From: Anaerolineae bacterium
Lineage (GTDB): Bacteria > Chloroflexota > Anaerolineae > UBA7937
Direction of reading: 5' to 3'
Assembly: GCA_034419095.1 (NCBI GenBank)
Contig: DAOULQ010000005.1
Coordinates: forward strand, 1,024 to 65,023
DNA: 64,000 bases
The notes below the pieces were generated by a model. It ran no database searches and was not told the origin of the DNA. It saw nothing but the letters and a program-made list of their open reading frames with translations. The position numbers were made by a program, and so were the translations under genes. Below, piece after piece: positions 1 through 24,212 of this stretch (the stretch's first letter is position 1; each line of letters starts with the position of its first letter).

Positions 1-2
1 AA

Positions 3-479
3 CAGTTGGCCCCGGCTATGGAAAAAGCCTTCCAGTGGGACACCACCTGCCTGGTGGAGGAGCTACTTAAGGGCACGGAAATCACCTGCGGAGTGATAGG
101 CAACGAAAACCCCATCGCCTTTCTCCCCACCGAGACACCCCCGCGCGGCGATTTCCTCACCGTGGAGGAGAAGTTCCTGCCCGGCGAGGGAGAGAATATC
201 ACCCCCGCTCGCCTCCCCCAGGAGATGACAAAGAAGGTACAGGAGGTAATGGTTGAGGCATACAAAGCCTTGGGAACGAAAGTCTACGCCCGCATCGACG
301 GCTTCATAGTCGATGGGGAGGTGATAATCACTGAGACCAACACCCTCCCCGGCATGACCCCCTCCACCTGTATCTTCCACCAGGCCGCCGAAGAGGGGAT
401 GAGCCCCATGGACCTGGTTACCAAAGTGATCGAGTTATCCTTGGAAGCCCATAGCCGAAAGAAAGGGCCGCTGGCCTGA
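3..479 (+). CDS. ddl: D-alanine--D-alanine ligase, C-terminal fragment (5' end outside window)
   Basis: ORF open to window edge. ATP-grasp C-terminal region ...IITETNTLPGMTPSTCIFHQAAEEGMS... is typical of Ddl. Confidence 0.85.
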   Translation, partial: QLAPAMEKAFQWDTTCLVEELLKGTEITCGVIGNENPIAFLPTETPPRGDFLTVEEKFLPGEGENITPARLPQEMTKKVQEVMVEAYKALGTKVYARIDGFIVDGEVIITETNTLPGMTPSTCIFHQAAEEGMSPMDLVTKVIELSLEAHSRKKGPLA

Positions 480-11561: not shown

Positions 11562-11636
11562 GCCCCTATAGCTCAGTCCGGATAGAGCAGTGGTTTCCTA
11601 AACCATGTGTCGCAGGTTCGAATCCTGCTAGGGGCA
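11562..11636 (+). tRNA. tRNA-Arg (anticodon CCU)
   Basis: GCCCCTATAGCTCAGTCCGGATAGAGCAGTGGTTTCCTAAACCATGTGTCGCAGGTTCGAATCCTGCTAGGGGCA. The cloverleaf pairs and the anticodon loop is TTCCTAA. Confidence 0.92.
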
Positions 11637-13150
11637 CCTTCCGTTCCACCGTCCTCGAGCGGGAAGGAGTAGGTCAGCACTCCGTAGTCTCGATACACCT
11701 CGATCCGCTGCACCATCCTCCTGAGATACTTGCGCCCCTCCATGCCTCCTTGCGACAGCGCCTCATGCAACCCTTCTAAGTATGCCACGATTTGATCTTT
11801 TGTCAAGTTCGGTACCTCAGGTTGGCCAGCCTCCAGCTGCGCTAAGCGACTGAGAACCTGAGCCTTCTCGTGCTGGCGCTCTTCTATCCTCTTGCTGATC
11901 TCCTCCCTGAGCCCTCCCACTTCCAGACCCTCGATGAGGTTCTGAATCTTCCTCTCCAGGGACCGCAGCTCCTTCTTCAGCCCCTTGATCGTCTTTTCGG
12001 CATCATCCGTCTCTTGGGAGAGGGCCGCGTTGGCCTCCTCCACCAACCGGGTGACGTGCTCGTCGGTCATCGACTCCTTCAGCTTCTCGATGATCGCGCT
12101 CTCCAACGCACGGGCCCCGGTCTTCTTCGCCTTGGCACAGGCTTCCGCTCCTCTACGCTCCTTAGTGGAGCAGCGATAGAAGACCCAGCCCACCCTGCGA
12201 CCCTGGTGCCTATCCACGCCGCCATTCATGGGGGCTTTGCAGTACCCGCAGTAGACCAGACCTGAGAGCAGATAGGGACTGGCCCTCCGGCGGGGATGAT
12301 CGTGAGGATCCTTCGCTTTTGGACTCACTTTGCGCCTCCTAGATTGAACTATGTCCCAGGTCTCCTGGTCGATCCTCGCAGTGTGGGCATCGGGCACCTC
12401 CAGCTCTCCACACTTCCGGATGCCGAGATACGTCTTGTTAGTCCACATGCTGCAGTAGCAGCCCATGTTCTTGAAGATCCGCGTCTTTCTGTGGATCTCC
12501 CTGTCGCTGTGGCCTTCACGCTTCATCTGCCAGGCCAGGCCTACCCGGTCCCAGTATTCGGGATCGGGAACCCAGCGGCGGACCTTTCTCTTCCCGTCTC
12601 CCAGTTGGATCTCCATTTCTTCGGCCTTGTACCCACGAGGAGGGAAACCACCTGGGGCGTAGCCAAGTTTGGCGATGGTGTGAAGGCCCCGCTTGATGGC
12701 CTTGGCTTGGTCTTTCAACCGCTGGGCGTCTTTCCAGTGGATCAGGGACTCTATGATGTACCTCATCCCCCGGTCTTCGACGGGCACATCGTCGGTGGCG
12801 GAGATAACCTCGATACCTAGCCTGCGGAGATCCGCCTTGAAAAAGTGGGCATCGTCCTCGTCTCTGGCGAAACGAGACCAGGAGAAGAGGATGATGGCGG
12901 CAGGCTTCGGCTCCACCTGGTGTGCCTGGTAGATCATCTGGTTAAAGTCGTCTCTCTTCACCACGTCGCTGCCGGGCTTCGCCTCGTCGACAAACCAGCG
13001 GGTGATGACCAGGCCGTGGTCTCGACCCCAGTTCTCCATGAACTCGCGCTGACTGACGATGGTGCCTCTCTCTTGCTGCTCCGGGCCCGAGACGCGGAGA
13101 TAGGCCCAGACGGAGGAACCGCGAGGTAGTGGGGAACCTTGATTAGTCAT
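11573..13150 (-). CDS. large serine recombinase (resolvase domain + recombinase domain + zinc ribbon + coiled coil); 3' end overlaps tRNA-Arg antisense
   Basis: 525 aa. N-terminal resolvase motif AYLRVSGPEQ (catalytic Ser). CGYCKAPMNG...YRCSTKERRGAEAC zinc ribbon, then a long coiled coil. The last ~21 codons (GAPSRIRTCDTWFRKPLLYPD) are the reverse complement of the tRNA. Confidence 0.88.
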   Translation of the reverse strand: MTNQGSPLPRGSSVWAYLRVSGPEQQERGTIVSQREFMENWGRDHGLVITRWFVDEAKPGSDVVKRDDFNQMIYQAHQVEPKPAAIILFSWSRFARDEDDAHFFKADLRRLGIEVISATDDVPVEDRGMRYIIESLIHWKDAQRLKDQAKAIKRGLHTIAKLGYAPGGFPPRGYKAEEMEIQLGDGKRKVRRWVPDPEYWDRVGLAWQMKREGHSDREIHRKTRIFKNMGCYCSMWTNKTYLGIRKCGELEVPDAHTARIDQETWDIVQSRRRKVSPKAKDPHDHPRRRASPYLLSGLVYCGYCKAPMNGGVDRHQGRRVGWVFYRCSTKERRGAEACAKAKKTGARALESAIIEKLKESMTDEHVTRLVEEANAALSQETDDAEKTIKGLKKELRSLERKIQNLIEGLEVGGLREEISKRIEERQHEKAQVLSRLAQLEAGQPEVPNLTKDQIVAYLEGLHEALSQGGMEGRKYLRRMVQRIEVYRDYGVLTYSFPLEDGGTEGAPSRIRTCDTWFRKPLLYPD

Positions 13151-13222: not shown

Positions 13223-13885
13223 TTATTGTGGAAGCTGTGACCGTTCCGGTAGATATATGTTGAGAACCCTTATTGCTTCATCCAATCGCTTCACAAGGAA
13301 CCCGCATTGCCATTTCATGACCTCACATATCCTTTCGCGGTTTTTCTTCGCCGTGCTGAGGCTTTGAGAAATCCCCACAGAGAGATCTATTAGCAAAGGT
13401 AAGAGCACATTGATGTCCTCGATTGTGGTATACACGTGAAGCAATGGAAAGAGCAACTCAGCGGGGATATTATCTAATAGCGGGCCCGAACTGACGGATC
13501 TCCAGCCACCCGTTGGGAGGGGGTTGGTGGGGATCCATCCTTCTTCCAGGCCTGTCTCCAGCCATTCGGTGACTTGCGACTGCGTTTTGTGGAGCTCGGA
13601 ACGCAGTAGTTCTAGGACTTTTCTTGCCTTCTCGGCCTTCTCTTCAGCTCTAGCTCTGCGCTCCAACCATCCTACGACCAAGACACCGATGGCAATAGCC
13701 ACCAGGAGGTCAGACAACAGGTTGGCAGAGAACTGTTGTGCCCAGTTTGGGCTCCTTCGAACCCCGATAGTCCACAGCAGTATCATGGCCAAAGCCACCA
13801 TAGTTAACCAAAACCACCATTGAGCCCAGAATCGATTCCGTGGCCTCACGCTCACACCCTCACATTCCTTCTTCCACTCTGCCAC
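13223..13885 (-). CDS. hypothetical 2-TM membrane protein with cytoplasmic helical domain
   Basis: 220 aa. Two N-terminal hydrophobic helices followed by a coiled-coil segment. The GTG start lies inside repeat R1a, so the start is uncertain. Confidence 0.5.
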   Translation of the reverse strand: MAEWKKECEGVSVRPRNRFWAQWWFWLTMVALAMILLWTIGVRRSPNWAQQFSANLLSDLLVAIAIGVLVVGWLERRARAEEKAEKARKVLELLRSELHKTQSQVTEWLETGLEEGWIPTNPLPTGGWRSVSSGPLLDNIPAELLFPLLHVYTTIEDINVLLPLLIDLSVGISQSLSTAKKNRERICEVMKWQCGFLVKRLDEAIRVLNIYLPERSQLPQ

Positions 13886-13922
13886 CAGATGGTGAATACC
13901 CCTGGTGGGTGATTGAAGTGCT
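13853..13922 (-). repeat. R1a conserved intergenic element
   Basis: Plus strand reads CACACCCTCACATTCCTTCTTCCACTCTGCCACCAGATGGTGAATACCCCTGGTGGGTGATTGAAGTGCT. Near-identical blocks at 16085-16154 and 20331-20400. Confidence 0.85.
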
Positions 13923-14425
13923 CAGCCTCGGTGATTGTTGTTCTTCTCCGCCCTTGCTCTAGCACGAGAAATATATCCCCCCTCGAAGCTAGCAACGTAC
14001 TGATCGAACGGCGTATTGGGATCTATCTTGTCTTTGTCATGGTAGAGCCTACGAAAGCGACGGCATCTATTGATCATGTTCTTCGAGATCCCTAAGTCCC
14101 GTGTTAGATGTTTGACCATTCCGTCCAGGAAGAACATGCCATCCTCGTATTTACGCTCATATTGAAAGATCCTATCACCCAGCTCCCAGTACAAGAACAC
14201 TCTCGGTTGGCCGCCATTCTGATTTGCGAGCGAGGCGAGTATTCCTCTCAAGTCATCTATCAAGTCCCAATATCCCTTCTCAAGAGATTCGAGAAGTGCT
14301 TCGACGTCGTCGTTCGTGACTTCTTCTTGGAATATCGAGGCAACCGGTATGGTTGCCCTAACGGTTTCCTTGCCGTCCGGCGATCTGATCTTCTGGACCT
14401 TGAAGCCGATTCTTATTTGTGTCAT
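13922..14425 (-). CDS. YhcG/DUF1016 N-terminal-like helical protein (no nuclease domain), partner of the GHKL ATPase
   Basis: Start set at MTQIRIG. Its ATG overlaps the upstream TGA (ATGA coupling). The segment LYWELGDRIFQYERKY...MVKHLTRDLGISKNMINRCRRFRRLY resembles the DUF1016 N-terminal module. Confidence 0.6.
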   Translation of the reverse strand: MTQIRIGFKVQKIRSPDGKETVRATIPVASIFQEEVTNDDVEALLESLEKGYWDLIDDLRGILASLANQNGGQPRVFLYWELGDRIFQYERKYEDGMFFLDGMVKHLTRDLGISKNMINRCRRFRRLYHDKDKIDPNTPFDQYVASFEGGYISRARARAEKNNNHRG

Positions 14426-15957
14426 TGCTGCTCTCCCCAAAGAGTGAAAACCTGGCCCATGAGATCGAAGGCCTTTTGACATGATGGTTCGGGATCGTGG
14501 TCCATCGAGAACCTTGTAAGTTCTACAGCGGTGGTCTTCAGGACATGGTAGTTTGCTGCTTCTCGTGCTCTAGAAGATCTGACATATGCAGGATGGGCCG
14601 TGTTGATGACAATCGTCTCGCCATCGAACCACCCTTCATTTGAGAGATCGGCTCTCTCCTCAAAACCCAAACGAATGCCCCCACGAATGACGCGCCGATG
14701 TACCTCGGCTCGTCTTCCCTCCCCAGGTTCGACTGTCGGTGCAACCCCTTCTTCTGGCCCTGGGTAGACATCAATTCCTTCTCCGGTTCCCGGTCCTCCT
14801 TCTGTTCCGGGAGCCTTTTGTGTTCCGCTACCGAGGCTTCGCTCCTCCCCACTCTCGTCAGGGATTGCAGCACGCGCTACTCTGCGTGCTCCGAAGAAGG
14901 TCAATGATGGGATTTGCTTGAGTATCCGGTTGATTTCCCGTTCCAGCTCAGGGAATACAAGGGGTCGTGGTTCTCTCTTTTCTAGGAGCCCTGCGCCCTC
15001 CAGCCATATTGCGAATTCCTTCTGTGCCCGGCGAAAGAAACCCTCCCAATTCTTGTTTCCCCTCTGGAATCGGCATTTGTCCGTTGTGACAGCTTTGATA
15101 AGATATGGAGCCTCAATCCATCCGAAGATTCTATCCTTATGGCGTGGCTCCTTCTTGAACCACGTCCGCTCTATGACCTTCCCATAGGTCGTTACGGCCA
15201 CCCCCTGAAGATGTTCGGGGAGCACCTCTTCTGCTAGCCCAAAGAATCCCCATCCCTGCGGTTTCTTGTAGCGAAGGATGGAGAACTCTTTCCGATGATT
15301 CAATGTCGTTTCGATCGGGCCACTAGTGATGACTGAGGCGTTCACCACGAACTTCAGGCCTTTCCGGTACTGCTCACGATACACTTCAAGCCTGCCCCTG
15401 CCGCCCTTTAGCAGGGGACGGTCTCCGGTATAGACCTGGACTAATTGCGGATCAAGTAGTGGGAAATAATGGTCTTCGAGAATTTGCTTTACTAGAGTAG
15501 GTGTATAGAATGACTTGCGATCCTTTTCCAGATATAGAGAGACTCGCGTTCCCGTCCCCGACAGTGTTCTCTCGTCAATGTAACGATATGGTGCATCATC
15601 ACCCTCCAATCTCCATATCGTTGCATCATGATAGTTCTTGCTGCGAGTCTCACTGATGATTCTATCGCAGAAGTTCAGTGCCAGTTTGGCGCCCTGCCCT
15701 GCAAAGCCGATTCCGGCACCTCTTTCCTTAGTGGTGGTTGCGAAATCGTGGTACTCCTTGAACTGCTTTCGCGTCATTCCAACACCGTCGTCGGTTACTC
15801 GGAGGATTGCATCTGAAATCTGGATGTCGATTACACGAGCTTTGGCGTCAAGTGCATTCGCTACTAGTTCGATCAGGGTAGCGACCTCGGGTTCGAAAGG
15901 ATATTGGTCCGCAATGTTTTGAGCCAGTCTTCGGATATTTACACCACTCTTCGGCAT
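14422..15957 (-). CDS. GHKL-superfamily ATPase (HATPase_c_3 / MORC-like)
   Basis: Start set at MPKSGVN with GGAGGAGG 8 nt upstream. Bergerat-fold motifs ELVANALDA (N box), DDGVGM (G1) and GIGFAGQGAKLA (G2). Long C-terminal region of unknown function with a Gly/Pro/Glu-rich linker. Confidence 0.8.
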   Translation of the reverse strand: MPKSGVNIRRLAQNIADQYPFEPEVATLIELVANALDAKARVIDIQISDAILRVTDDGVGMTRKQFKEYHDFATTTKERGAGIGFAGQGAKLALNFCDRIISETRSKNYHDATIWRLEGDDAPYRYIDERTLSGTGTRVSLYLEKDRKSFYTPTLVKQILEDHYFPLLDPQLVQVYTGDRPLLKGGRGRLEVYREQYRKGLKFVVNASVITSGPIETTLNHRKEFSILRYKKPQGWGFFGLAEEVLPEHLQGVAVTTYGKVIERTWFKKEPRHKDRIFGWIEAPYLIKAVTTDKCRFQRGNKNWEGFFRRAQKEFAIWLEGAGLLEKREPRPLVFPELEREINRILKQIPSLTFFGARRVARAAIPDESGEERSLGSGTQKAPGTEGGPGTGEGIDVYPGPEEGVAPTVEPGEGRRAEVHRRVIRGGIRLGFEERADLSNEGWFDGETIVINTAHPAYVRSSRAREAANYHVLKTTAVELTRFSMDHDPEPSCQKAFDLMGQVFTLWGEQQ

Positions 15958-16084
15958 TGCTCGTCCTCCTCCACGCTCCGAGTTCTGCATGTCTTCCGGC
16001 AGGGGTGAAGCTAGTTCCGCTAATCTTCGTTTGTCCGGCCTTTTCCTTCAGGCGTCAGCATTGCATCCCCACTTGGTGGGTGCC

Positions 16085-16154
16085 CACACCCTCACATTCC
16101 TTCTCCCACTCTGCCACCAGATGGTGAACGCCCCTAGGCAGATGATTGAAGTCC
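16085..16154 (-). repeat. R1b conserved intergenic element
   Basis: Plus strand reads CACACCCTCACATTCCTTCTCCCACTCTGCCACCAGATGGTGAACGCCCCTAGGCAGATGATTGAAGTCC. Lies between the MTase stop (16181) and the GHKL start. Confidence 0.85.
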
Positions 16155-16180
16155 AGCTCGTTGTATCCTGACTGAACATC

Positions 16181-19100
16181 CTAACTCAACTCCTCAAGCG
16201 AACGTTTGATCTCTGCTAGTTCCTTATCGGTGAAGCCCCAGAGTTCTGCGGCTTTGCGGTCTATCTCCTCCTCGACCTGCTTTAGGGCTTCCTTCTCCCC
16301 CTTGGCGGCCAACTCATGAGCACCCTGGGAGAGGGCGGAGAGTTCCTGGTGGAGAGGGTTCTGGGGATCGAATTTGGGGATGTCAGCATATTCCAACAGG
16401 TGGGCAGAGGCGAAGCTCTTGCCGACGGAATAAGACCTTGCTATGAAATCGACAATGGAGGAATTCAGCACCGTAGATAAAAAGTGAGCTTCCTTGTGAT
16501 CACTTGCTTCCACGAACAGTACTGTGTTTTTGTGAATGGGCACCTTTTCGCCGACGAAATGATCAGCAAATGGCGTCACAACGGCGGCCTCTAGGCTTGG
16601 GCCCATAGACTTCCAAATGACCTTGCTAGTCGCGAAGGTGTATGGCCCAACGTTATAGATAGAATAGAACGGGTCTGACTGGGGATCAAAGTACTTCTTG
16701 TATCCGCTTCTCTCCCTCAAAATGTGCTCAAATTGCTTGAGGTAAGAATAAGTGTTTGGCAGTTCCACCTTCAGCCATCTTTCGTCATAGCCCACCCTGC
16801 GGTCCGGGTCTTGCACCATGAGAATATAGAAGGAAGGCTTTGCGGAAAAGGGACTAACGTTCTTCCATGGGATGAATGGGTAGACCAGCGTGGGCTCTAA
16901 TACAGCCTGCACCTGCTTAATATCTTTCTTGCCAAGCTCTGGCAAATTCTCAACAACCAAGAGTCCATCTGAACGCTTTTCAATAATCCGAAGCCAATAG
17001 ATACCATCGGCCCATGTAGTTGCCCCTGCCCTCGCTTGGTATTCAGATGAGCCAAAAGCCCTACGGATGGCGCTAATGGCCTTTGCCCTTGCGGTGAACC
17101 AGGGAGCTGTGGGCTGAGCCGCGCGGACCGGTTCTGCTTGGAAGTGGCTTGTGGTGGTAAGTTGCTTCACTTCCTCAAGAGAGTTATCCACTCCCAGGCT
17201 AACCCTTTTTCTCTTGCGCCAGAGTGTGTAGGGAACTGGATATGACGTGGAATGGCCCTTCTGTAGCACGATCACGCTGGTCCAATTTGAAGCCCCCTCA
17301 AAAGGCTGCAAGGCCACCATGTCGTCCACATGAAGCACCCGTAAATCGGCCCCTTCCTCACCCAACTTGAAGCGCCGAAAGCCATCCCCGGCCCCTTTGG
17401 TCTTGAACAGCGTTTGCGTAATGACAAAGCCCAATTTACCCTTATCCTTCAAGTAATGGTCTATGCAGGCATAGGCAAAGAGCGCCGCTAAATCTTTCTT
17501 TCCGCCGCCAAGCCTAGCGCGCCAGCCTTTGAGGCTAAAGAGACCATAATCCACCCAGAGGGGCTTGGTGGCATCCCTGTACTCGTCAGACAGGCTCTCC
17601 CAGTTGACCCAAGGAGGATTGCCCACGACGTAGTCAAAGGGCTCCTGGAAGATAGGAGCAAAGGCGTTCTTGAGAATACGAGCCCAGATGCGGTTGCGTC
17701 CCTCCTTTTCAAGTTGCAGAAGCGTTTGGTATAGTGAAGATAGACCAGTGCTCGTGGCTCCCTCCTTGAAAGCGAGTTCACGCTCTGCTCGCTCCAGGAA
17801 CTCCTTCTCCTCGTACTGGCTTTTCACGCATTCCTCTAGTAATTGACTGAGTGCATCCATTTGCCTATTAACAATGATCTCCCTAGGCATCATAAATTTG
17901 CCTGCAACAGTGGTAATCACTGGGCCTTGCTCAAATAGGCCTGGTTTCAACGGCTCCGAAGGCGTGAGGATGGAGTCGCACATGTAAACAGGGATAGTGA
18001 TGGGGGAGATGGCCCGGCGGAGATTACCGAGAGCCAGAAGATAGGTAGTCCGGGCGGCGATGACCGCTATAGGGTTGAGATCGAAGCCCACCACATTTTT
18101 CAACACCTTTTGAGCCACATCTGCGTACTCCAGCAGTTTCTCGTCGGCGTATTCGCGGATACGCTTGATAGCCAGAGCCAGGAAAGTGCCGGAGCCGCAA
18201 GCGGGGTCTAAGAGGCGGAGATCAGGGTTGCCGTCGTAGCCAACTTGATTTAGAAGGCGTTCAGCAAGCCAATCGGGAGTATAGTATTCGCCTAAGTCAT
18301 GGCGAAGTTTCTTAGGGACCAGATATTGATAGAGTTTCTTCAAGAGGTCACGAGTGGCTTCCGGGTCTATCTCAGCGGTGGCGGGCTCAAAGTCGGATAG
18401 ACGACGGGCCATGCGGCGAATGGCCGCGCTAACATCTCCATTCCAGTCGGCGAGATACCAACCGAAGAAGTCGCCTTCCAGAAAGTTCAGGATGCCGAAG
18501 GCCTGAAAGTGCCCGCCATCCTCAAGGTTGCTAAGCTGGCTTTGCAACTCAGCATCCGAAAGTGCAGCCAGTTGAGTGACGAAGGAGGGAACATACGACT
18601 CAGGCTGAAGGGAGAGGAGTTCAGCGACGAGAAGTTTCATCAGAAGAGCGTAGTAAGTGTGGACGGCGAAGAGCAAGGGCTTCAATTCTACCCGCATGTC
18701 TACGCCGTACCTCTTTGCCAATTGAGCGGCGTCCTTCTCGGCTTTGCTTATATCTTGCCCGTAGACAATGCCAAAGATGCGGTCCCACTCTTTGAAAAAG
18801 GTATCGACCTTGGGGCTCTTGGAAGCCAAAAGCGTCTGGTAGAAGGTATTCACGGCTTGGCGAGCAGTTTCAGCGTCGGGCCCGAATTCCTTGGTTAGTT
18901 CCTCTGGGGTGAGAGGATAGCGGTGGAGGGCGCGGATATAGGTAAGGAATAGTGAGATGGTCTGGGCATTAACCGGATTAGGTCCATCGAGGTCAAAACC
19001 GCCGGGGAGGATTGCTTCAGGCAAGAGAGGGAGTTGAGCACTGGGTTTCCTCTTGGGAAAAGGTACTTTTGCCCTGGCCTTGGTGCCAGTGTATCGCACG

Positions 19101-19477
19101 AAGAGTATCTGAAATCCGTCGAGGGAGACGCCGACCATCCTCTTCAAAGCGGCCTCTTTCTGCTTCTCTCCATGGCGCGAGGCCTCGGCGTCGAGATATT
19201 TGACGAGTTGCTCAATCGTCTCCTCTTGTCCCCTCTTGCTCTTGAGTTTGCCTGGACGCTCGTATTCGAGAATTAGGTGGCCGTGGATGGCATCATAGAA
19301 AGAGGTACTGGTGGCTTTCTCATATCGAGGCTCGGTAGTGATGTCGAGGGCTTTCAGCACGGGATCGAGGGCTTTTTCCACGCCGATGCGAAGGTCCTCC
19401 TCTGTATCGGCTCGCTTAGCTACTGTGAGGATGTCTTTCGCCAATTGCTCTGCCAAGGGTTGTCGCTTGTTGATCAC
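16181..19477 (-). CDS. large gamma-class N6-adenine DNA methyltransferase (Type IIG/IIL- or PglX-like architecture)
   Basis: 1098 aa. Motif I LDPACGSGTFL, motif IV VVGNPPWVNWESL, and a long C-terminal TRD-like region. The N-terminal segment FYDAIHGHLILEYERPGKLKS resembles an MmeI-type D-x(8-9)-E-x-K nuclease motif but reads E-Y-E. Confidence 0.85.
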   Translation of the reverse strand: MINKRQPLAEQLAKDILTVAKRADTEEDLRIGVEKALDPVLKALDITTEPRYEKATSTSFYDAIHGHLILEYERPGKLKSKRGQEETIEQLVKYLDAEASRHGEKQKEAALKRMVGVSLDGFQILFVRYTGTKARAKVPFPKRKPSAQLPLLPEAILPGGFDLDGPNPVNAQTISLFLTYIRALHRYPLTPEELTKEFGPDAETARQAVNTFYQTLLASKSPKVDTFFKEWDRIFGIVYGQDISKAEKDAAQLAKRYGVDMRVELKPLLFAVHTYYALLMKLLVAELLSLQPESYVPSFVTQLAALSDAELQSQLSNLEDGGHFQAFGILNFLEGDFFGWYLADWNGDVSAAIRRMARRLSDFEPATAEIDPEATRDLLKKLYQYLVPKKLRHDLGEYYTPDWLAERLLNQVGYDGNPDLRLLDPACGSGTFLALAIKRIREYADEKLLEYADVAQKVLKNVVGFDLNPIAVIAARTTYLLALGNLRRAISPITIPVYMCDSILTPSEPLKPGLFEQGPVITTVAGKFMMPREIIVNRQMDALSQLLEECVKSQYEEKEFLERAERELAFKEGATSTGLSSLYQTLLQLEKEGRNRIWARILKNAFAPIFQEPFDYVVGNPPWVNWESLSDEYRDATKPLWVDYGLFSLKGWRARLGGGKKDLAALFAYACIDHYLKDKGKLGFVITQTLFKTKGAGDGFRRFKLGEEGADLRVLHVDDMVALQPFEGASNWTSVIVLQKGHSTSYPVPYTLWRKRKRVSLGVDNSLEEVKQLTTTSHFQAEPVRAAQPTAPWFTARAKAISAIRRAFGSSEYQARAGATTWADGIYWLRIIEKRSDGLLVVENLPELGKKDIKQVQAVLEPTLVYPFIPWKNVSPFSAKPSFYILMVQDPDRRVGYDERWLKVELPNTYSYLKQFEHILRERSGYKKYFDPQSDPFYSIYNVGPYTFATSKVIWKSMGPSLEAAVVTPFADHFVGEKVPIHKNTVLFVEASDHKEAHFLSTVLNSSIVDFIARSYSVGKSFASAHLLEYADIPKFDPQNPLHQELSALSQGAHELAAKGEKEALKQVEEEIDRKAAELWGFTDKELAEIKRSLEELS

Positions 19478-19554: not shown

Positions 19555-20217
19555 CTATGTAACGGTGCCAATCTCCAGCACGTGCCCAATGTACTCTCGG
19601 AGCACTTTGACATCTTTGTTCCTCAGGTAGTCCTTGTCAGGCCAGAAGGGATTTAGGCGCGATACGTATCTTAGGTCAGGCAACTCGTCGCCGATCTTCA
19701 AATGTGGTTGTTGATGATCATCCACTTGAACTTCAACGAGTTGGAGGTCTGGTGGCGTGCCGTTAGCCAGGAGAGCAGCAAACAACACCGGCAATTTGGT
19801 CTCCTGTACGAGGTTGCGTGTCTCACGAAGGCGTCTTACTATCTCCTCTTCATTGAGCTGAGCACTATAGCAGTGCCAAAGACACACCCGATCGAAACCG
19901 AATCTAAGCAAACCTATTGCTTGCTCAAGACCGAGGTAGGTCGGGAATCTCCCGCTAGCCACGGGGATGAATTTCAGCTCTATTGCAATCCAGAAGTTGT
20001 CTCGGATAACCAGTAGGTCAATATCCGGCTGGACCGGCGGGGGAATACCCTCATACTGACTGTTCCAATAGTCAATGAACTTCTTTGACGTCAATCTCCG
20101 GCGGCAGAAGATCAACTTGTAGTCGCCAGTCTCTTCGAGGCGTTTGGCAACTTCGTGTGCGATGACACTCTCCGTCAACTCCTGTCTGGCCACGGACCCT
20201 GTTTCAGCTTCCATCAT
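19555..20217 (-). CDS. PD-(D/E)xK nuclease-fold protein (candidate restriction partner)
   Basis: 220 aa. PDIDLLVIRDNFWIAIELKF gives a D...E-x-K signature. Lies immediately upstream of, and co-oriented with, the MTase (78-nt gap). Confidence 0.6.
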   Translation of the reverse strand: MMEAETGSVARQELTESVIAHEVAKRLEETGDYKLIFCRRRLTSKKFIDYWNSQYEGIPPPVQPDIDLLVIRDNFWIAIELKFIPVASGRFPTYLGLEQAIGLLRFGFDRVCLWHCYSAQLNEEEIVRRLRETRNLVQETKLPVLFAALLANGTPPDLQLVEVQVDDHQQPHLKIGDELPDLRYVSRLNPFWPDKDYLRNKDVKVLREYIGHVLEIGTVT

Positions 20218-20280: not shown

Positions 20281-20330
20281 GCTCCGTGTTCATTGCTCTC
20301 ACCCTGCCGCAGAAGAGGCGGGGCCTCGGC

Positions 20331-20400
20331 CACACCCTCACATTCTTTGCCCATTCTGCCACCAGATGCCCAGCCCCTAGCAGTAGGATGATTCCAATCC
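20331..20400 (-). repeat. R1c conserved intergenic element
   Basis: Plus strand reads CACACCCTCACATTCTTTGCCCATTCTGCCACCAGATGCCCAGCCCCTAGCAGTAGGATGATTCCAATCC. Lies just after the stop (20418) of the 1264-aa gene. Confidence 0.8.
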
Positions 20401-20417
20401 CCTTCTGGGCTAAGGGG

Positions 20418-23400
20418 CTAAAAGTCACGTCTTTCTTCTTCAATTCTTGCCCGTTCAATCTGTTGATCCAATGAAGACACGTACTCATCAATCCAGCCCT
20501 TCACACTTTCGTTGTCTTCTCCTTTTTTGAAATCAAGCAATCGTTGTTTTTTCCCTTGATAGTGCAAGCTTCGCGGCCCTGTCCAGCCTTCTGTTGAGAA
20601 GTTTGCCATTAGATTCCGTCGCACATCTTCTCTTGATCCATATCTCGCAAGAACTTCTCTTGCTATACAGATTCTTCCCTCCTCTCGAAAAAGCACTTTA
20701 GGAGCAAAACTGGCTAGGTACCAAGCGCGATTCTCCACATCCTCATCAACCCATTCCCAGATTCTCTCCAAAGGAATCATAGCCAGTGCTCCTTCACTTC
20801 CCGTTTCAAAGAATTGGCCACCTCTTAGCCATTCCTTTATGCCAAACGCTCGTGAATCTATCGGCGGCCCCAGGTATCTTGTCGTCAGAGCCCAGACTTC
20901 TTTTGGGTATCGTCGGGTAATTTCGTTAAGTACAGCTTGAGTGCGCGAGTGGAAACCCTCGACAATTGTGCCCTCTTCTCCGAAATGCTCGAGGATTCTT
21001 TCTCCAAGGTGCAAACCTTTTTCCGGATAGAGTTGGACAAACGCCTTCCCGATTTCCACCCAATTGTAGTCATCCATTTGATCGCGTCTGCCTGCTTCAG
21101 GCTTTTGAAACAATGCTGTGTGCGTCAGAAGTTTCAGGGTTAGTTCTTCTGGCAAAGTGTGCTTGGACTCCTTGGCAAGATAGTGGGAGCGGTACAAATC
21201 CAGTGCAATAGAAGCAGCGTGAGCGTCGGAATCACCAAGTAAGAACTCAATGCAGTTCTTGAAGACATCCTCAGATAGGTCTCGAATAGCACCCCCTAAA
21301 ACAAGCATCCGGAACTGACCAATGCCAATGATACCTTTTTCTGCAAGACCCAGGATACGCAGAGCCGCTTGATCAGAAATTCCCGACCGCCAGGTCAATT
21401 CAGGAACCCAACCGTTCAAGTTTTCATCTTCGGTGAGAGCGTCCAATTGGTCTTCCCATTTCTGTTGATCCTTCTCAAAGAGCGCGCGAAAATACCCCCC
21501 GAGGAAATAGACGCTTGCGCTCTTGCCTGCCCTTCGCTGCGCTTCGAGAAGTATCGGCAAGAGCGAGAAATCCATATCTCTCTTTCCCAGTTCATATCCA
21601 AACCGGTAGCCGTTCTGCGCTTCCGTTGTCAGAAGCCAGTCTAACTCTGGCCGCAGTAGGTCGCTCTTTTCAATTGCTTGTGTGGCCAACTCTTCAATTC
21701 TTGGTTGCGTTTGGTCTACATAGTTGCCTTCCTGGTCAAATCTGTCTTCCAAGAGATCCATGGCCACATAGCGCTCCATAAGCGAGGAAAAATCGCTGCC
21801 GGTAAGGTCGTCTCTGAGTTCTTCCCAACGCTGACGTACTTCTGGCGGCATCTCTTGGCCGTCATAACGTAGAATCTGAACGACCTTAGCGAGTACCTTC
21901 TTGCCATCTACATAGGGTTTTCCTCTTAGTTCGTCCACGGTTTCAATGACCATGTCGGTTAAGTTCAGAATCCTGGCTAACCCTCTCGCGCGCTGGAGAA
22001 GGATGTTGACTGCTTGTTGTTGCTCATCTTCTGGCAGACTATCTAACCGCTTGCATAGCAATTGCCATACTCGCCGGTACCCATCAAATAACTCCCTGTA
22101 TGTTTGTGGCGTCCAAAGCTGAGGCTCCTGTCGCAGTCCTTGCCGTTCAGCACCAATCATCCGGGTGAAAAACTGTGACTCCAATGCCCGATCACAAGCA
22201 CGCAAGGCAAGAAGCCTCCTGTCTTTTGAACTCGACTCAAAGGCTTCCTTGAGAACAGGAAAGCGTTCCTGCGGAGAAGCCTCTGTTGGGGCAACCCGTC
22301 CAGGGCCTAGAGAAAACAGTTCTGCAAAAACGCCACTGGCATTGTTTGACCAGGTTTCGTTTTCTGCCTCTCCGAGGGCTAGAAGCAGCCTTGCTGCATC
22401 CGCAAACAAGTCCCGCCACATTGCGATCTTCTCAAGGGCCCATACTACCTCCCTCCGACCCGTTGTGAATTTCAGAAGATCCTCTTTGCTCCAGGTTCCA
22501 ATTGTGTTCTTCAGACATTCCAATGCTGACCCCGGATCGGCTTCTGAAAGAGCCTGAAAGAACTGTGCGCCCGGGCTTGATCTCAAGTAGTTGCCAGTTC
22601 TGAAAGGGCCCCTTTTGTCCAGAAGCTCTCGACCGATACCAGACGCAACCTCAGACTCAGCCGCATACTTAAACATCTCGTAGAACCACTCAAGCAGTTT
22701 CGGCCGCCAACCTCCGGAGAAATCCTCTAGATCGAATGTGTCGCCGTAGGTATTCCACCACCTAGTCCACAAGTAGATATGGAGTGCTTTGGGTGTGATG
22801 TAGAGCGTATTCTCACCTTGAAGAATCCGCTTCGCCTTCAAATCATGGATGATCTCCTGAAACCTTGGCCAAGTGATCTGAGGGTCCGCCTGTTCAACCA
22901 TCTTGGCTATCGCTTGTGCCTCAGCGACAACTGGCCGTCCATAACCGAACCGCTTGAAAAGCGCAATGTGTTGGAGCACCAGTCGCCTTTGTCGCACCTG
23001 TTGGCTATCTGGATCATCTCCGGCCACAATGTAGCGATTCCATACATCGACAGTAGCGGGAGCTCTTAGCAGATCCTCTGGGTGGTTTTTCAAGTTCCAC
23101 CCGATGACATGGGCAACTCTGGGAGAACCACTGCACAAATCCGCCCACCGGTCTGCCTTGTCTTTGGGAATGCCATACTCTTGAATGATGCTACTTATCT
23201 GTTCTTCTTGTAGCGGCGCCGCATCAAGGTAGGTTATATCGCCAGCAGTCCGATCGTACTCGCTATAGATCGAGACAAGTTTGATCCTCGGACTATGATA
23301 TTGGAGTTTGTTCCAGATATAGGATCTGCTATCTAGATCGCATTCATCGATAACCAGAATAGCGAAGAAAGGATTGTCATCTCTCAGGATCTCATACATT

Positions 23401-24212
23401 AGGTTGCTATCTCTGAACCGGCTCGCGCTGTCACAATAAACAACCAGTGGCTGTAGGTCCTCTGCGCGCGTTGCCTCCAGTACGAGTCTCGTCTTGCCGA
23501 TTCCAGGCTCACCCCATACGTGTATATGAACGGGCGCGCCGTTCTTGCGCAATTCGCTTTGAATACTCAATATGCGGTCTTCTTGTGTCTGACCGATCTT
23601 CAATGGCCTTCTCATCTCGGATTCCCGAGACCAACTTCGATGTGTCTGAAACCCTAGTCCTGTCCGTCCCGTCAATTGCAGCGCCAATGATGGAAATGGC
23701 TTGAGGAACCCAATGAGGGTGTTCTGCCGCCATATCTCGATCTTTGCATCCTTGTACCTACGATCTATATCGGCCAGTTTCCTCTTGAACTTGTCTTTGC
23801 AATAGTCGTCCGTCACGTCTGGATTGTCCCAACCGAACAGTACCACAACCAATGTTCCGTTCTTCTCTAGACATGACTTCACCCTCGGTCTAAGTTCGTC
23901 GGAGCCCTCTCTAAACAAGATGCTTCTGATATCACTCTCTCTGGTCGGAGAGAGGTCACCAGTCTTGATTTGGTAACAAGTTAGGCCTTGTCTAATGATT
24001 CCCTGTCCACCACTAATCTGAACATCTTGTACTTTCCCATCTACGCCACCGTCCGCAACAGTAATTGCACTCGGTACCTCTATGAGATTCTTTCCGATTC
24101 CAAGAGCCGTCCCTTCTGCCCAAAGCAACTCACGGAAAAAGTTCACAGCCTCTTGAGGGCTCAAGCGCTCCAAGTCTTGATTCCTTACTGAGAAAATCGT
24201 GTCCATGCTCAC
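20418..24212 (-). CDS. Avs-like STAND NTPase: Mrr-like PD-(D/E)xK N-terminal domain + P-loop NTPase + long helical-repeat C-terminus
   Basis: 1264 aa. N-terminus FFRELLWAEGTALGIGKNLIEVPSAITVADGGVDGKV...CYQIKTG matches the Mrr-cat pattern (DGGxD ... QxK). Walker A VWGEPGIGKTRLVLE, Walker B ILVIDECD, and ~900 aa of helical repeats. Confidence 0.7.
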   Translation of the reverse strand: MSMDTIFSVRNQDLERLSPQEAVNFFRELLWAEGTALGIGKNLIEVPSAITVADGGVDGKVQDVQISGGQGIIRQGLTCYQIKTGDLSPTRESDIRSILFREGSDELRPRVKSCLEKNGTLVVVLFGWDNPDVTDDYCKDKFKRKLADIDRRYKDAKIEIWRQNTLIGFLKPFPSLALQLTGRTGLGFQTHRSWSRESEMRRPLKIGQTQEDRILSIQSELRKNGAPVHIHVWGEPGIGKTRLVLEATRAEDLQPLVVYCDSASRFRDSNLMYEILRDDNPFFAILVIDECDLDSRSYIWNKLQYHSPRIKLVSIYSEYDRTAGDITYLDAAPLQEEQISSIIQEYGIPKDKADRWADLCSGSPRVAHVIGWNLKNHPEDLLRAPATVDVWNRYIVAGDDPDSQQVRQRRLVLQHIALFKRFGYGRPVVAEAQAIAKMVEQADPQITWPRFQEIIHDLKAKRILQGENTLYITPKALHIYLWTRWWNTYGDTFDLEDFSGGWRPKLLEWFYEMFKYAAESEVASGIGRELLDKRGPFRTGNYLRSSPGAQFFQALSEADPGSALECLKNTIGTWSKEDLLKFTTGRREVVWALEKIAMWRDLFADAARLLLALGEAENETWSNNASGVFAELFSLGPGRVAPTEASPQERFPVLKEAFESSSKDRRLLALRACDRALESQFFTRMIGAERQGLRQEPQLWTPQTYRELFDGYRRVWQLLCKRLDSLPEDEQQQAVNILLQRARGLARILNLTDMVIETVDELRGKPYVDGKKVLAKVVQILRYDGQEMPPEVRQRWEELRDDLTGSDFSSLMERYVAMDLLEDRFDQEGNYVDQTQPRIEELATQAIEKSDLLRPELDWLLTTEAQNGYRFGYELGKRDMDFSLLPILLEAQRRAGKSASVYFLGGYFRALFEKDQQKWEDQLDALTEDENLNGWVPELTWRSGISDQAALRILGLAEKGIIGIGQFRMLVLGGAIRDLSEDVFKNCIEFLLGDSDAHAASIALDLYRSHYLAKESKHTLPEELTLKLLTHTALFQKPEAGRRDQMDDYNWVEIGKAFVQLYPEKGLHLGERILEHFGEEGTIVEGFHSRTQAVLNEITRRYPKEVWALTTRYLGPPIDSRAFGIKEWLRGGQFFETGSEGALAMIPLERIWEWVDEDVENRAWYLASFAPKVLFREEGRICIAREVLARYGSREDVRRNLMANFSTEGWTGPRSLHYQGKKQRLLDFKKGEDNESVKGWIDEYVSSLDQQIERARIEEERRDF

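Follow-up and report, generated by a model that had tools for sequence, protein, structure and literature searches.

A pair of overlapping genes, encoding a GHL ATPase and a small partner protein, forms an intact, translationally coupled and co-inherited two-gene unit under purifying selection in the genome of an Anaerolineae bacterium. The pair spans 2.0 kb within a 64,000-nucleotide stretch of contig DAOULQ010000005.1, the whole of which we refer to as the window. We class it as a conflict module built on a GHL ATPase, with a fixed adaptor that is new; it has the defining architecture of none of the related systems with which it was compared (prokaryotic MORC/paraMORC, Tiamat and GHKL-Shedu). 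For its function we give about an even chance to an ATP-driven GHL clamp that would work with its adaptor on DNA, in conflict with foreign DNA (anti-phage or anti-mobile-element). GHL ATPases such as gyrase, Hsp90, MutL and MORC are central cellular machines; to our knowledge, however, none with an antiviral role is a minimal, nuclease-free unit of two proteins.

Both open reading frames are present on the minus strand where the original prediction had placed them, and the ATGA in which the stop codon of the ATPase gene overlaps the start codon of the partner gene is real (Table 1). The assigned ATPase start agrees with the N-termini of its homologues, and homologue N-termini give no support to the longer versions (522 aa and 186 aa) found in a mechanical listing of open reading frames. 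About 9 nt upstream of the partner start, the conserved Trp-Gly codons at the C-terminus of the ATPase contain a TGGGG, which supplies a GGGG(A) motif and, from its sequence and position, looks like the Shine-Dalgarno element of the partner. A promoter and terminator scan returned nothing on the strand of the pair.

The two genes are also conserved together across genomes. Loci were drawn from assemblies and from 79 species genomes, the genes of related loci being six-frame open reading frames, and a partner homologue lies directly 3' of the ATPase in about 60 of 80 of them. Where the junction could be compared, an NTGA overlap of 4 nt occurs in 43 of 58 loci and a TAATG overlap in 4. The distance matrices of ATPase and partner agree closely (r=0.95), a value that none of 999 Mantel permutations reached, which marks co-evolution of the two genes as a single unit. 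With respect to the closest orthologues, those of locus L002 (87% identity for the ATPase and 80% for the partner), dN/dS is 0.12 for the ATPase and 0.23 for the partner.

The ATPase scores above the Pfam cut-offs for both HATPase_c_3 (42.1 bits against a cut-off of 25, E 1e-10) and HATPase_c (36.7 bits), and it possesses the four Bergerat motifs of the GHL branch: ExxxNxxD (I), DxGxG (II), GxxGxG (III) and G-T (IV). In an alignment of 34 homologues (42-87% identity), residues E30, N34, D37, D56, G58, G60, G84, G87, G89 and G136 are invariant and T137 is nearly so. The motif strings quoted in the original prediction (ELVANALDA, DDGVGM and GIGFAGQGAKLA) are present and fall on these invariant columns. 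Because all four motifs are invariant or nearly invariant, the protein should bind and hydrolyse ATP. Conservation extends into the middle region (GKVIERTxFKKEPRxK...GWIEAPYLIxAVTTDKCRFQ) and, past a Gly/Pro/Glu-rich stretch, resumes in the C-terminal domain (EAWFDGETVxINxxHPAY...NYH...FxxLWG).

To place the fold, an AlphaFold2 model of the ATPase (mean predicted local distance difference test score, pLDDT, of 79, mostly >85 outside the disordered residues 356-425) was compared with the PDB using Foldseek. The top 50 matches all belong to the Hsp90 family (TRAP1, GRP94, Hsp90 and HtpG), with E ~1e-14 over ~400 aligned columns covering the N and middle domains. A profile of the ATPase family searched against PDB sequences likewise performs best with Hsp90 N-domains (E 1e-7), and the best NCBIfam match is the N-terminal domain of sacsin (E 3e-8). 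Orthology to a housekeeping member of the superfamily was rejected by the curated cut-offs in both cases considered: the NCBIfam HtpG model reaches 22 bits against a cut-off of 371 and covers the head only, while the MutL model TIGR00585 gives 28.8 bits against 180 over residues 30-68 only, the true MutL of this genome being encoded on another contig (G000:C43, 459 bits). The Hsp90 middle/C-terminal family PF00183 has no match in the ATPase nor in the whole genome. The protein had earlier been labelled MORC-like; given the fold and profile matches and the lack of housekeeping orthology, it is therefore better described as an Hsp90/sacsin-like GHL ATPase, with N and middle domains predicted to resemble those of Hsp90.

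These same matches, together with the absence of a canonical Hsp90 from the genome, would suit an Hsp90-like protein chaperone, with the small protein as a co-chaperone or adaptor; it would fold, stabilise or remodel protein clients, such as those of the island or of defence systems, and would not work on DNA. However, the resemblance does not extend to any sequence match with the middle or C-terminal domains of Hsp90, and the HtpG score is far from its threshold. The relatives and fusions of the partner, moreover, are nucleic-acid-related (DUF1016 nucleases, ribbon-helix-helix (RHH), Mrr_N, sigma70_r4, AlkZ). Most genomes of the order lack both the ATPase gene and HtpG, so the ATPase does not fill the niche of a missing chaperone. 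We regard a chaperone role as very unlikely, and favour a DNA clamp mainly because the associations of the module point to nucleic acid.

The C-terminal domain of the ATPase has no PDB match by sequence and corresponds to no known domain. In its residues 441-474 and 503-508 (~14440-14640 of the window), the Asn and His of an IN..HP motif are invariant in all clades and a terminal Trp-Gly is likewise retained; these are kept in the most distant relatives, partner-less clades included. A His-Me-finger nuclease was considered for the N..HP motif and dropped, since the spacing does not fit.

The small partner had been described as resembling only the N-terminal helical module of DUF1016/YhcG nucleases, without their nuclease part, and both halves of that description are borne out. 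The Pfam DUF1016_N model alone remains at 20.7 bits, below its cut-off of 32.8 (E 4.7e-4), and matches the same region in 10 of 31 members of the partner family. In an hhalign comparison with four true DUF1016_N proteins, all encoded by genomes of this bacterial class, the alignment over residues 45-145 has a probability of 95.4% and an E of 1.9e-8; the PADLOC PDC-S02 models (DUF1016-type candidates) also match, at 3e-6. Partner and DUF1016_N have a signature in common, YWxxGxxI ... L.RDLG.S...L...R.FR..Y. Homology of the helical core with the DUF1016/YhcG N-domain is thus confirmed by sequence comparison. No PD-(D/E)xK nuclease is present in the partner, which ends at residue 167 and has no nuclease-family match. 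In its AlphaFold2 model (pLDDT 88.6), residues 6-25 form an N-terminal beta-hairpin, besides which there are a long helix and a compact bundle of helices. Among 1.8 billion representatives there are 489 relatives at E<=1e-3 and 197 at E<=1e-10, and the best 150 of the 489 are nearly all stand-alone proteins of 140-185 aa.

The pairing had been taken not to be a named system, and this stands: PADLOC, NCBIfam and PHROGs contain only head-domain or sub-threshold matches to the pair, and the searched literature on GHKL/MORC/Hsp90-like antiphage proteins and on DUF1016/YhcG does not describe it. Prokaryotic MORC and paraMORC GHKL ATPases sit in restriction-modification-type operons, with a superfamily 2 (SF2) helicase and/or a restriction-type nuclease and methylase as conserved partners (Iyer, Abhiman & Aravind 2008, PMC2292703). 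Like the ATPase described here, they combine an HATPase_c_3-type N-terminal Bergerat ATPase with a transducer-like middle domain (a predicted one in the pair), and they are laterally mobile, patchy, often found among restriction-modification (R-M) or defence genes and proposed to manipulate DNA in an ATP-driven manner. The pair, on the other hand, has a fixed DUF1016_N-like partner, and the restriction-type operon context is not conserved, ~75 loci showing no conserved SF2 helicase, nuclease or methylase. Its predicted fold is also nearer to Hsp90 than to MutL or MORC; the comparison with these families, paraMORC1-5 among them, covered operon context and fold.

Few antiphage GHL proteins are known, namely Tiamat and GHKL-Shedu (doi 10.64898/2026.09.30.754977, PMC12137116). 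Tiamat (TmtA) is an antiphage Hsp90/sacsin-like GHL ATPase-nuclease (doi 10.64898/2026.09.30.754977), and the pair resembles it in the Hsp90-like ATPase head, the defence-island context and the modular swapping of downstream modules. However, TmtA is one large protein with DUF3684 and a DUF3883 PD-(D/E)xK nuclease, neither of which is found in the ATPase of the pair, and the PADLOC TmtA model matches that ATPase over ~60 residues only (27-84, E 0.0026). GHKL-Shedu (VcSduA) unites a GHKL ATPase and an active DUF4263 nuclease in a single polypeptide (PMC12137116). The common ground is a GHKL ATPase associated with a module of the PD-(D/E)xK world and a proposed dimeric clamp controlling an effector, whereas the pair has only a non-catalytic DUF1016 N-domain, as a separate protein. 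DUF1016/YhcG nucleases (PDC-S02) possess the homologous helical N-domain; the partner differs from them in lacking the C-terminal PD-(D/E)xK, in its added N-terminal beta-hairpin and in being always coupled to a GHL protein. Hsp90/HtpG and MutL have the ATPase head and the predicted N-plus-middle architecture in common with the ATPase, which by predicted fold comes closest to Hsp90, but its C-terminal domain is different and just 2 of the 27 genomes examined in the order carry it. The Mza system was also rejected: the ATPase does not match the MutL-like MzaB, and the MzaA matches of a third gene in clade I (see below) are confined to a ~65-residue sigma70_r4 helix-turn-helix (HTH).

Mechanistically, a GHL clamp is a C-terminal dimer whose N-terminal domains close, driven by ATP, around a substrate of the middle domain (doi 10.64898/2026.09.30.754977). 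By analogy with the GHL proteins studied, the ATPase would dimerise via its C-terminal domain, and ATP binding would close the N-domains, clamping a substrate in the lumen of the middle domains. The co-translated partner would serve as a stoichiometric adaptor, selecting or loading this substrate. We take DNA to be the most probable substrate, since the partners of other clades have DNA-binding modules (sigma70_r4, RHH+Mrr_N, RHH-like tail, AlkZ-like) as fusions or as the next gene. The module might then clamp or compact target DNA, or license effectors encoded elsewhere. As the pair lies on an island of defence genes it is a plausible defence system, a role that we infer from context.

The additions to the pair differ from clade to clade. 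Neighbour clustering over ~75 loci, whose counts have no random-gene baseline, found no universally conserved third gene; the only conserved neighbours are the small partner itself and, in one clade, a sigma70_r4 protein. This is clade I, where a ~500-aa sigma70_r4-HTH protein directly follows the pair at 24 loci by clustering and where 20 scanned members match Pfam sigma70_r4. In part of the window's clade (4-5 loci) the next gene, overlapping by 4 nt, encodes a 179-aa RHH+Mrr_N protein. At L016 (4978-6531) the partner continues in frame into a complete AlkZ-like winged-helix domain (YcaQ-type crosslink glycosylase, Pfam E 1e-64), at L029 it is fused to a GNAT domain, and the longer partners of clade III have a ~100-residue C-terminal tail that reads, by eye, like a ribbon-helix-helix, Pfam being silent. 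The pair had been called a stand-alone cassette; this holds in so far as it is found alone elsewhere (e.g. L027), but the minimal pair is one form within a larger family, in which other clades add a DNA-binding gene or fusion. Defence-type neighbours recur at several loci: an AlwI R-M system and GmrSD_N at L002; Type IIG, SNF2-PLD, SLFN_AlbA_2 and Fic at L098; a Type IIG enzyme at L012; HEPN/MNT at L097; and HEPN/MNT with ParE at L120.

Several observations weigh against a DNA clamp engaged in defence. No effector (nuclease, pore or NADase) is recognisable in the pair. By predicted fold the ATPase comes nearest to Hsp90, which acts on protein clients and not on DNA; DNA binding by the DUF1016_N-like core is only putative, the partner fold has no counterpart in the PDB or BFVD (no solved structure resembles it), and the RHH character of the clade III tail was read by eye. 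Ignavibacteriota/Bacteroidota and Eisenbacteria branches of the ATPase tree are without the partner. Non-defence settings are also common: in a Dehalococcoidales-like lineage the pair lies between SecA and PolX/ValRS, at 8 Anaerolineae loci UvrA lies 5' of it on the same strand, at L027 it lies between two ddl paralogues, and GatB is among the housekeeping neighbours at some loci. Only a minority of 99 neighbours within ~4.5 kb match defence models, a count that has no random-gene baseline, and the mad3/mad8 matches among them are housekeeping UvrA.

Some of these settings are the basis of the main rival explanation, a DNA-repair or genome-maintenance accessory in which the ATPase would be a MutL-like matchmaker and the partner would recognise damaged or unusual DNA, the two serving repair enzymes and not the fight against invaders. 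Repair genes adjoin the pair in three lineages (PolX, UvrA, AlkZ-like): PolX, full or truncated, stands directly 3' in the SecA-ValRS locus, the UvrA gene of L016 ends 19 nt before the ATPase start, and at the same locus the partner carries its AlkZ-like fusion. Within those lineages the positions are stable and syntenic. However, the UvrA and PolX adjacencies amount to one lineage-specific synteny each and are not independent. Sporadic presence in the order argues against a core repair function, the genome already encodes MutL, and the only other carrier in the order, a sister genome, has its ATPase copy split by a frameshift without a replacement; R-M, toxin-antitoxin or defence genes adjoin the pair in the window and at several loci. 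On balance we consider a repair accessory unlikely. If it were true, the pair would represent a new MutL-like pathway in poorly studied lineages.

A bolder version of the clamp on foreign DNA, which we hold to be quite unlikely, would be a self-sufficient module for immunity or silencing that has no nuclease, as a prokaryotic equivalent of the silencing by MORC proteins in eukaryotes. The DUF1016_N-like adaptor would here recognise foreign or aberrant DNA, the Hsp90-like GHL dimer would clamp and compact this DNA or block its replication or transcription in an ATP-dependent manner, and the lineage add-ons (RHH, Mrr_N, sigma70_r4, AlkZ-like) would retarget the module. The module is small, sharply defined and strongly conserved, with natural add-on variants, which makes it tractable for the study of how a separate adaptor targets a GHL clamp. 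It allows one to ask whether DNA clamping alone gives immunity, and would provide the DUF1016/YhcG N-domain with its first functional context.

A maximum-likelihood tree of the ATPase has three deep clades. In the window's clade every complete locus has the partner; a second deep clade has the partner plus the third gene; and the third, mixed clade includes the Ignavibacteriota/Bacteroidota and Eisenbacteria branches, which have lost the partner. The tree mixes phyla, with at least 7 changes required for Chloroflexota and with Aenigmatarchaeota, Bathyarchaeia and a "Caldarchaeum" protein nested among bacteria. In total the pair spans at least 15 bacterial and archaeal phyla. Such a patchy distribution implies horizontal transfer, and the pair therefore behaves as a horizontally moving chromosomal accessory module of uncultured bacteria and archaea. 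No match to the pair was found in plasmid and phage collections, and IMG/VR gave one partial match, to the ATPase head domain only. Two near-identical ATPase-partner-RHH/Mrr_N loci, L010 and L011 (end branches of 0.015 each in the tree, the partner and third-gene products agreeing over the stretches compared), come from bins of the same study, a Bacteroidota and a Fervidobacterium metagenome-assembled genome; this near-identity reflects either exchange in the very recent past or faulty binning.

In the window, the pair belongs to an island that is a serine-recombinase integrative element at tRNA-Arg, with defence cargo that includes the pair (Table 1). The tRNA-Arg(CCU) gene overlaps the last ~21 codons of the serine recombinase gene. 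On the minus strand there follow, in order, the gene of a two-transmembrane (2-TM) protein, the pair, a Type IIG R-M enzyme, a PD-(D/E)xK-like protein, a PD-Lambda-4_A-like STAND protein, a CI/LexA-type repressor, a replication-O/DnaA_N protein (replication initiator), AbiEii/AbiEi, a DUF4011-helicase-MTES_1575 protein and PIN_12. The sister genome G021 has a related recombinase at the same tRNA (85-87% DNA identity), and both G025 and G021 carry an insertion of several kb between the MazG gene and the tRNA-Pro/Arg pair, which marks the tRNA site as a variable hotspot. In a comparison of the far border, the sister-genome flanks of the island map to other contigs.

Table 1. Coordinates of the pair, of its ATPase domains and of surrounding features of the window.
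Feature	Position	Strand	Remarks
tRNA-Arg(CCU)	11562-11638	plus	
Large serine recombinase gene	11573-13150	minus	
2-TM protein gene	13885..13223	minus	220 aa
R1 copy 3' of the pair	13847..13927	minus	begins at partner stop codon
Small partner gene	14425..13922	minus	167 aa
ATGA stop/start overlap	14425-14422	minus	ATPase TGA with partner ATG; translational coupling
GHL ATPase gene	15957..14422	minus	511 aa
ATPase N-terminal ATPase domain	residues ~1-175		
ATPase middle domain	residues ~200-350		
ATPase Gly/Pro/Glu-rich linker	residues 356-425		disordered
ATPase C-terminal alpha/beta domain	residues 428-511		conserved
Shine-Dalgarno GGAGGAGGA	15964..15972	minus	7-15 nt 5' of ATPase ATG at 15957; read from sequence
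R1 copy 5' of the pair	16081..16166	minus	20-codon stump of 2-TM gene start (MAEWEKECEGV...)
Type IIG R-M enzyme	16181-19477	minus	1098 aa; PADLOC E=0
PD-(D/E)xK-like protein	19555-20217	minus	220 aa
PD-Lambda-4_A-like STAND protein	20418-24212	minus	1264 aa

This setting also suggests a role in the upkeep of the element itself, in which the pair might silence island DNA, partition it or keep out competing elements. The island carries a CI/LexA-like repressor and a replication initiator, the pair is flanked on both sides by a repeat that marks the borders of cassettes, and eukaryotic MORC-type GHL ATPases silence DNA (PMC2292703). Yet integrase or element genes are absent from the surroundings of the pair at most other loci, and the plasmid, phage and IMG/VR collections are without it save for the partial head-domain match. 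Maintenance or regulation of a mobile element has, in our estimate, only a slim chance, and the conflict with foreign DNA proposed above is preferred.

The repeat in question, R1, is ~85 nt long. The original prediction had the pair bracketed by two copies, and the repeats are real: their cores (16082-16135 and 13850-13903) share 93% identity along 54 nt, a match that none of 100 shuffles produced. The 2-TM gene takes its start codon and first ~12 codons (MAEW.KECEGV) from the copy 3' of the pair. The simplest reading of the two copies is that a segment of the pair plus R1 recombined into the R1 that precedes the 2-TM gene. The exact bracketing, on the other hand, is particular to this window, and R1 is a genus-wide repeat that does not belong to the pair as such. 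The genome has 15 dispersed copies, including a third, weaker copy in the window (20325-20409) and copies on contigs C166, C238, C207, C22, C155, C39, C251, C52, C81 and C76 of G000; R1 occurs in 5 of 6 other genomes of the genus (1-10 copies each), with 3 copies in a second genus of the order. Copies usually lie 0-180 nt 5' of diverse accessory genes, many of them defence-like, and four extend ~150 nt further 5', into a small open reading frame with one transmembrane segment (...WLAIFEHNYHPRIYRYSE...ELDFNHPEGVFTIWWQSG...). At L002, GmrSD_N and two further genes lie together with the pair between weak R1 copies, while L027 has no R1 copy, so the pair moves with or without R1. R1 looks like a portable cassette border or recombination substrate; a structured RNA was rejected, there being no Rfam match and a fold z-score of 0.64.

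The immediate neighbours of the pair might themselves be functional associates: the pair might serve the Type IIG enzyme next to it as an accessory subunit, like the MORC proteins of R-M operons (Iyer et al. 2008), or form one unit of three genes in which the 2-TM protein is the effector. The pair is on the same strand as both, the Type IIG gene ending 223 nt 5' and the 2-TM gene starting 36 nt 3' of it; a Type IIG enzyme likewise adjoins the pair at L098 and L012, and the 2-TM protein is weakly SLATT-like. However, none of the other loci of the pair has a homologue of the window's Type IIG enzyme, the enzyme of L098 is unrelated to it beyond the methylase motif, an R1 copy separates the pair from each neighbour, and at L002, the closest orthologous locus, the genes flanking the pair are different ones. 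The 2-TM family has only 3 homologues in 5.8 billion proteins, none of them next to an ATPase, and its SLATT matches are weak (E ~0.006). A functional link with the Type IIG enzyme is thus largely refuted by the lack of conserved linkage and the 2-TM protein was likewise rejected as effector, so that both are placed outside the module; we consider such a unit highly improbable. One member of the 2-TM family is encoded at G000:C76 2617-3261, on the minus strand.

As to the other cargo of the island, the 220-aa protein encoded 5' of the Type IIG gene has a D...ExK-type motif (DIDLLVI...IAIELK), and the Type IIG model aligns only from residue 165 of the window's enzyme; taken together, these suggest that the nuclease of this R-M unit may be supplied in trans. 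The 1264-aa protein matches PADLOC PD-Lambda-4_A from end to end (E 2e-24), with no recognisable PD-Lambda-4_B beside it.

Two small genes adjoin the pair at other loci. In the SecA-[pair]-PolX-230aa-ValRS block, PolX is intact at L121 (9620-11338), and the HHH_8 gene of L003 (10083-10385) and L005 (10036-10335), once a candidate for a dedicated component, is a 99-aa stump of it. At L095 (9062-9289) and L121 (9387-9623) the partner is followed by a conserved, very acidic protein of 75-78 aa (..DYYEWLKDNF..PDWDW..), possibly a small regulator or a DNA mimic.

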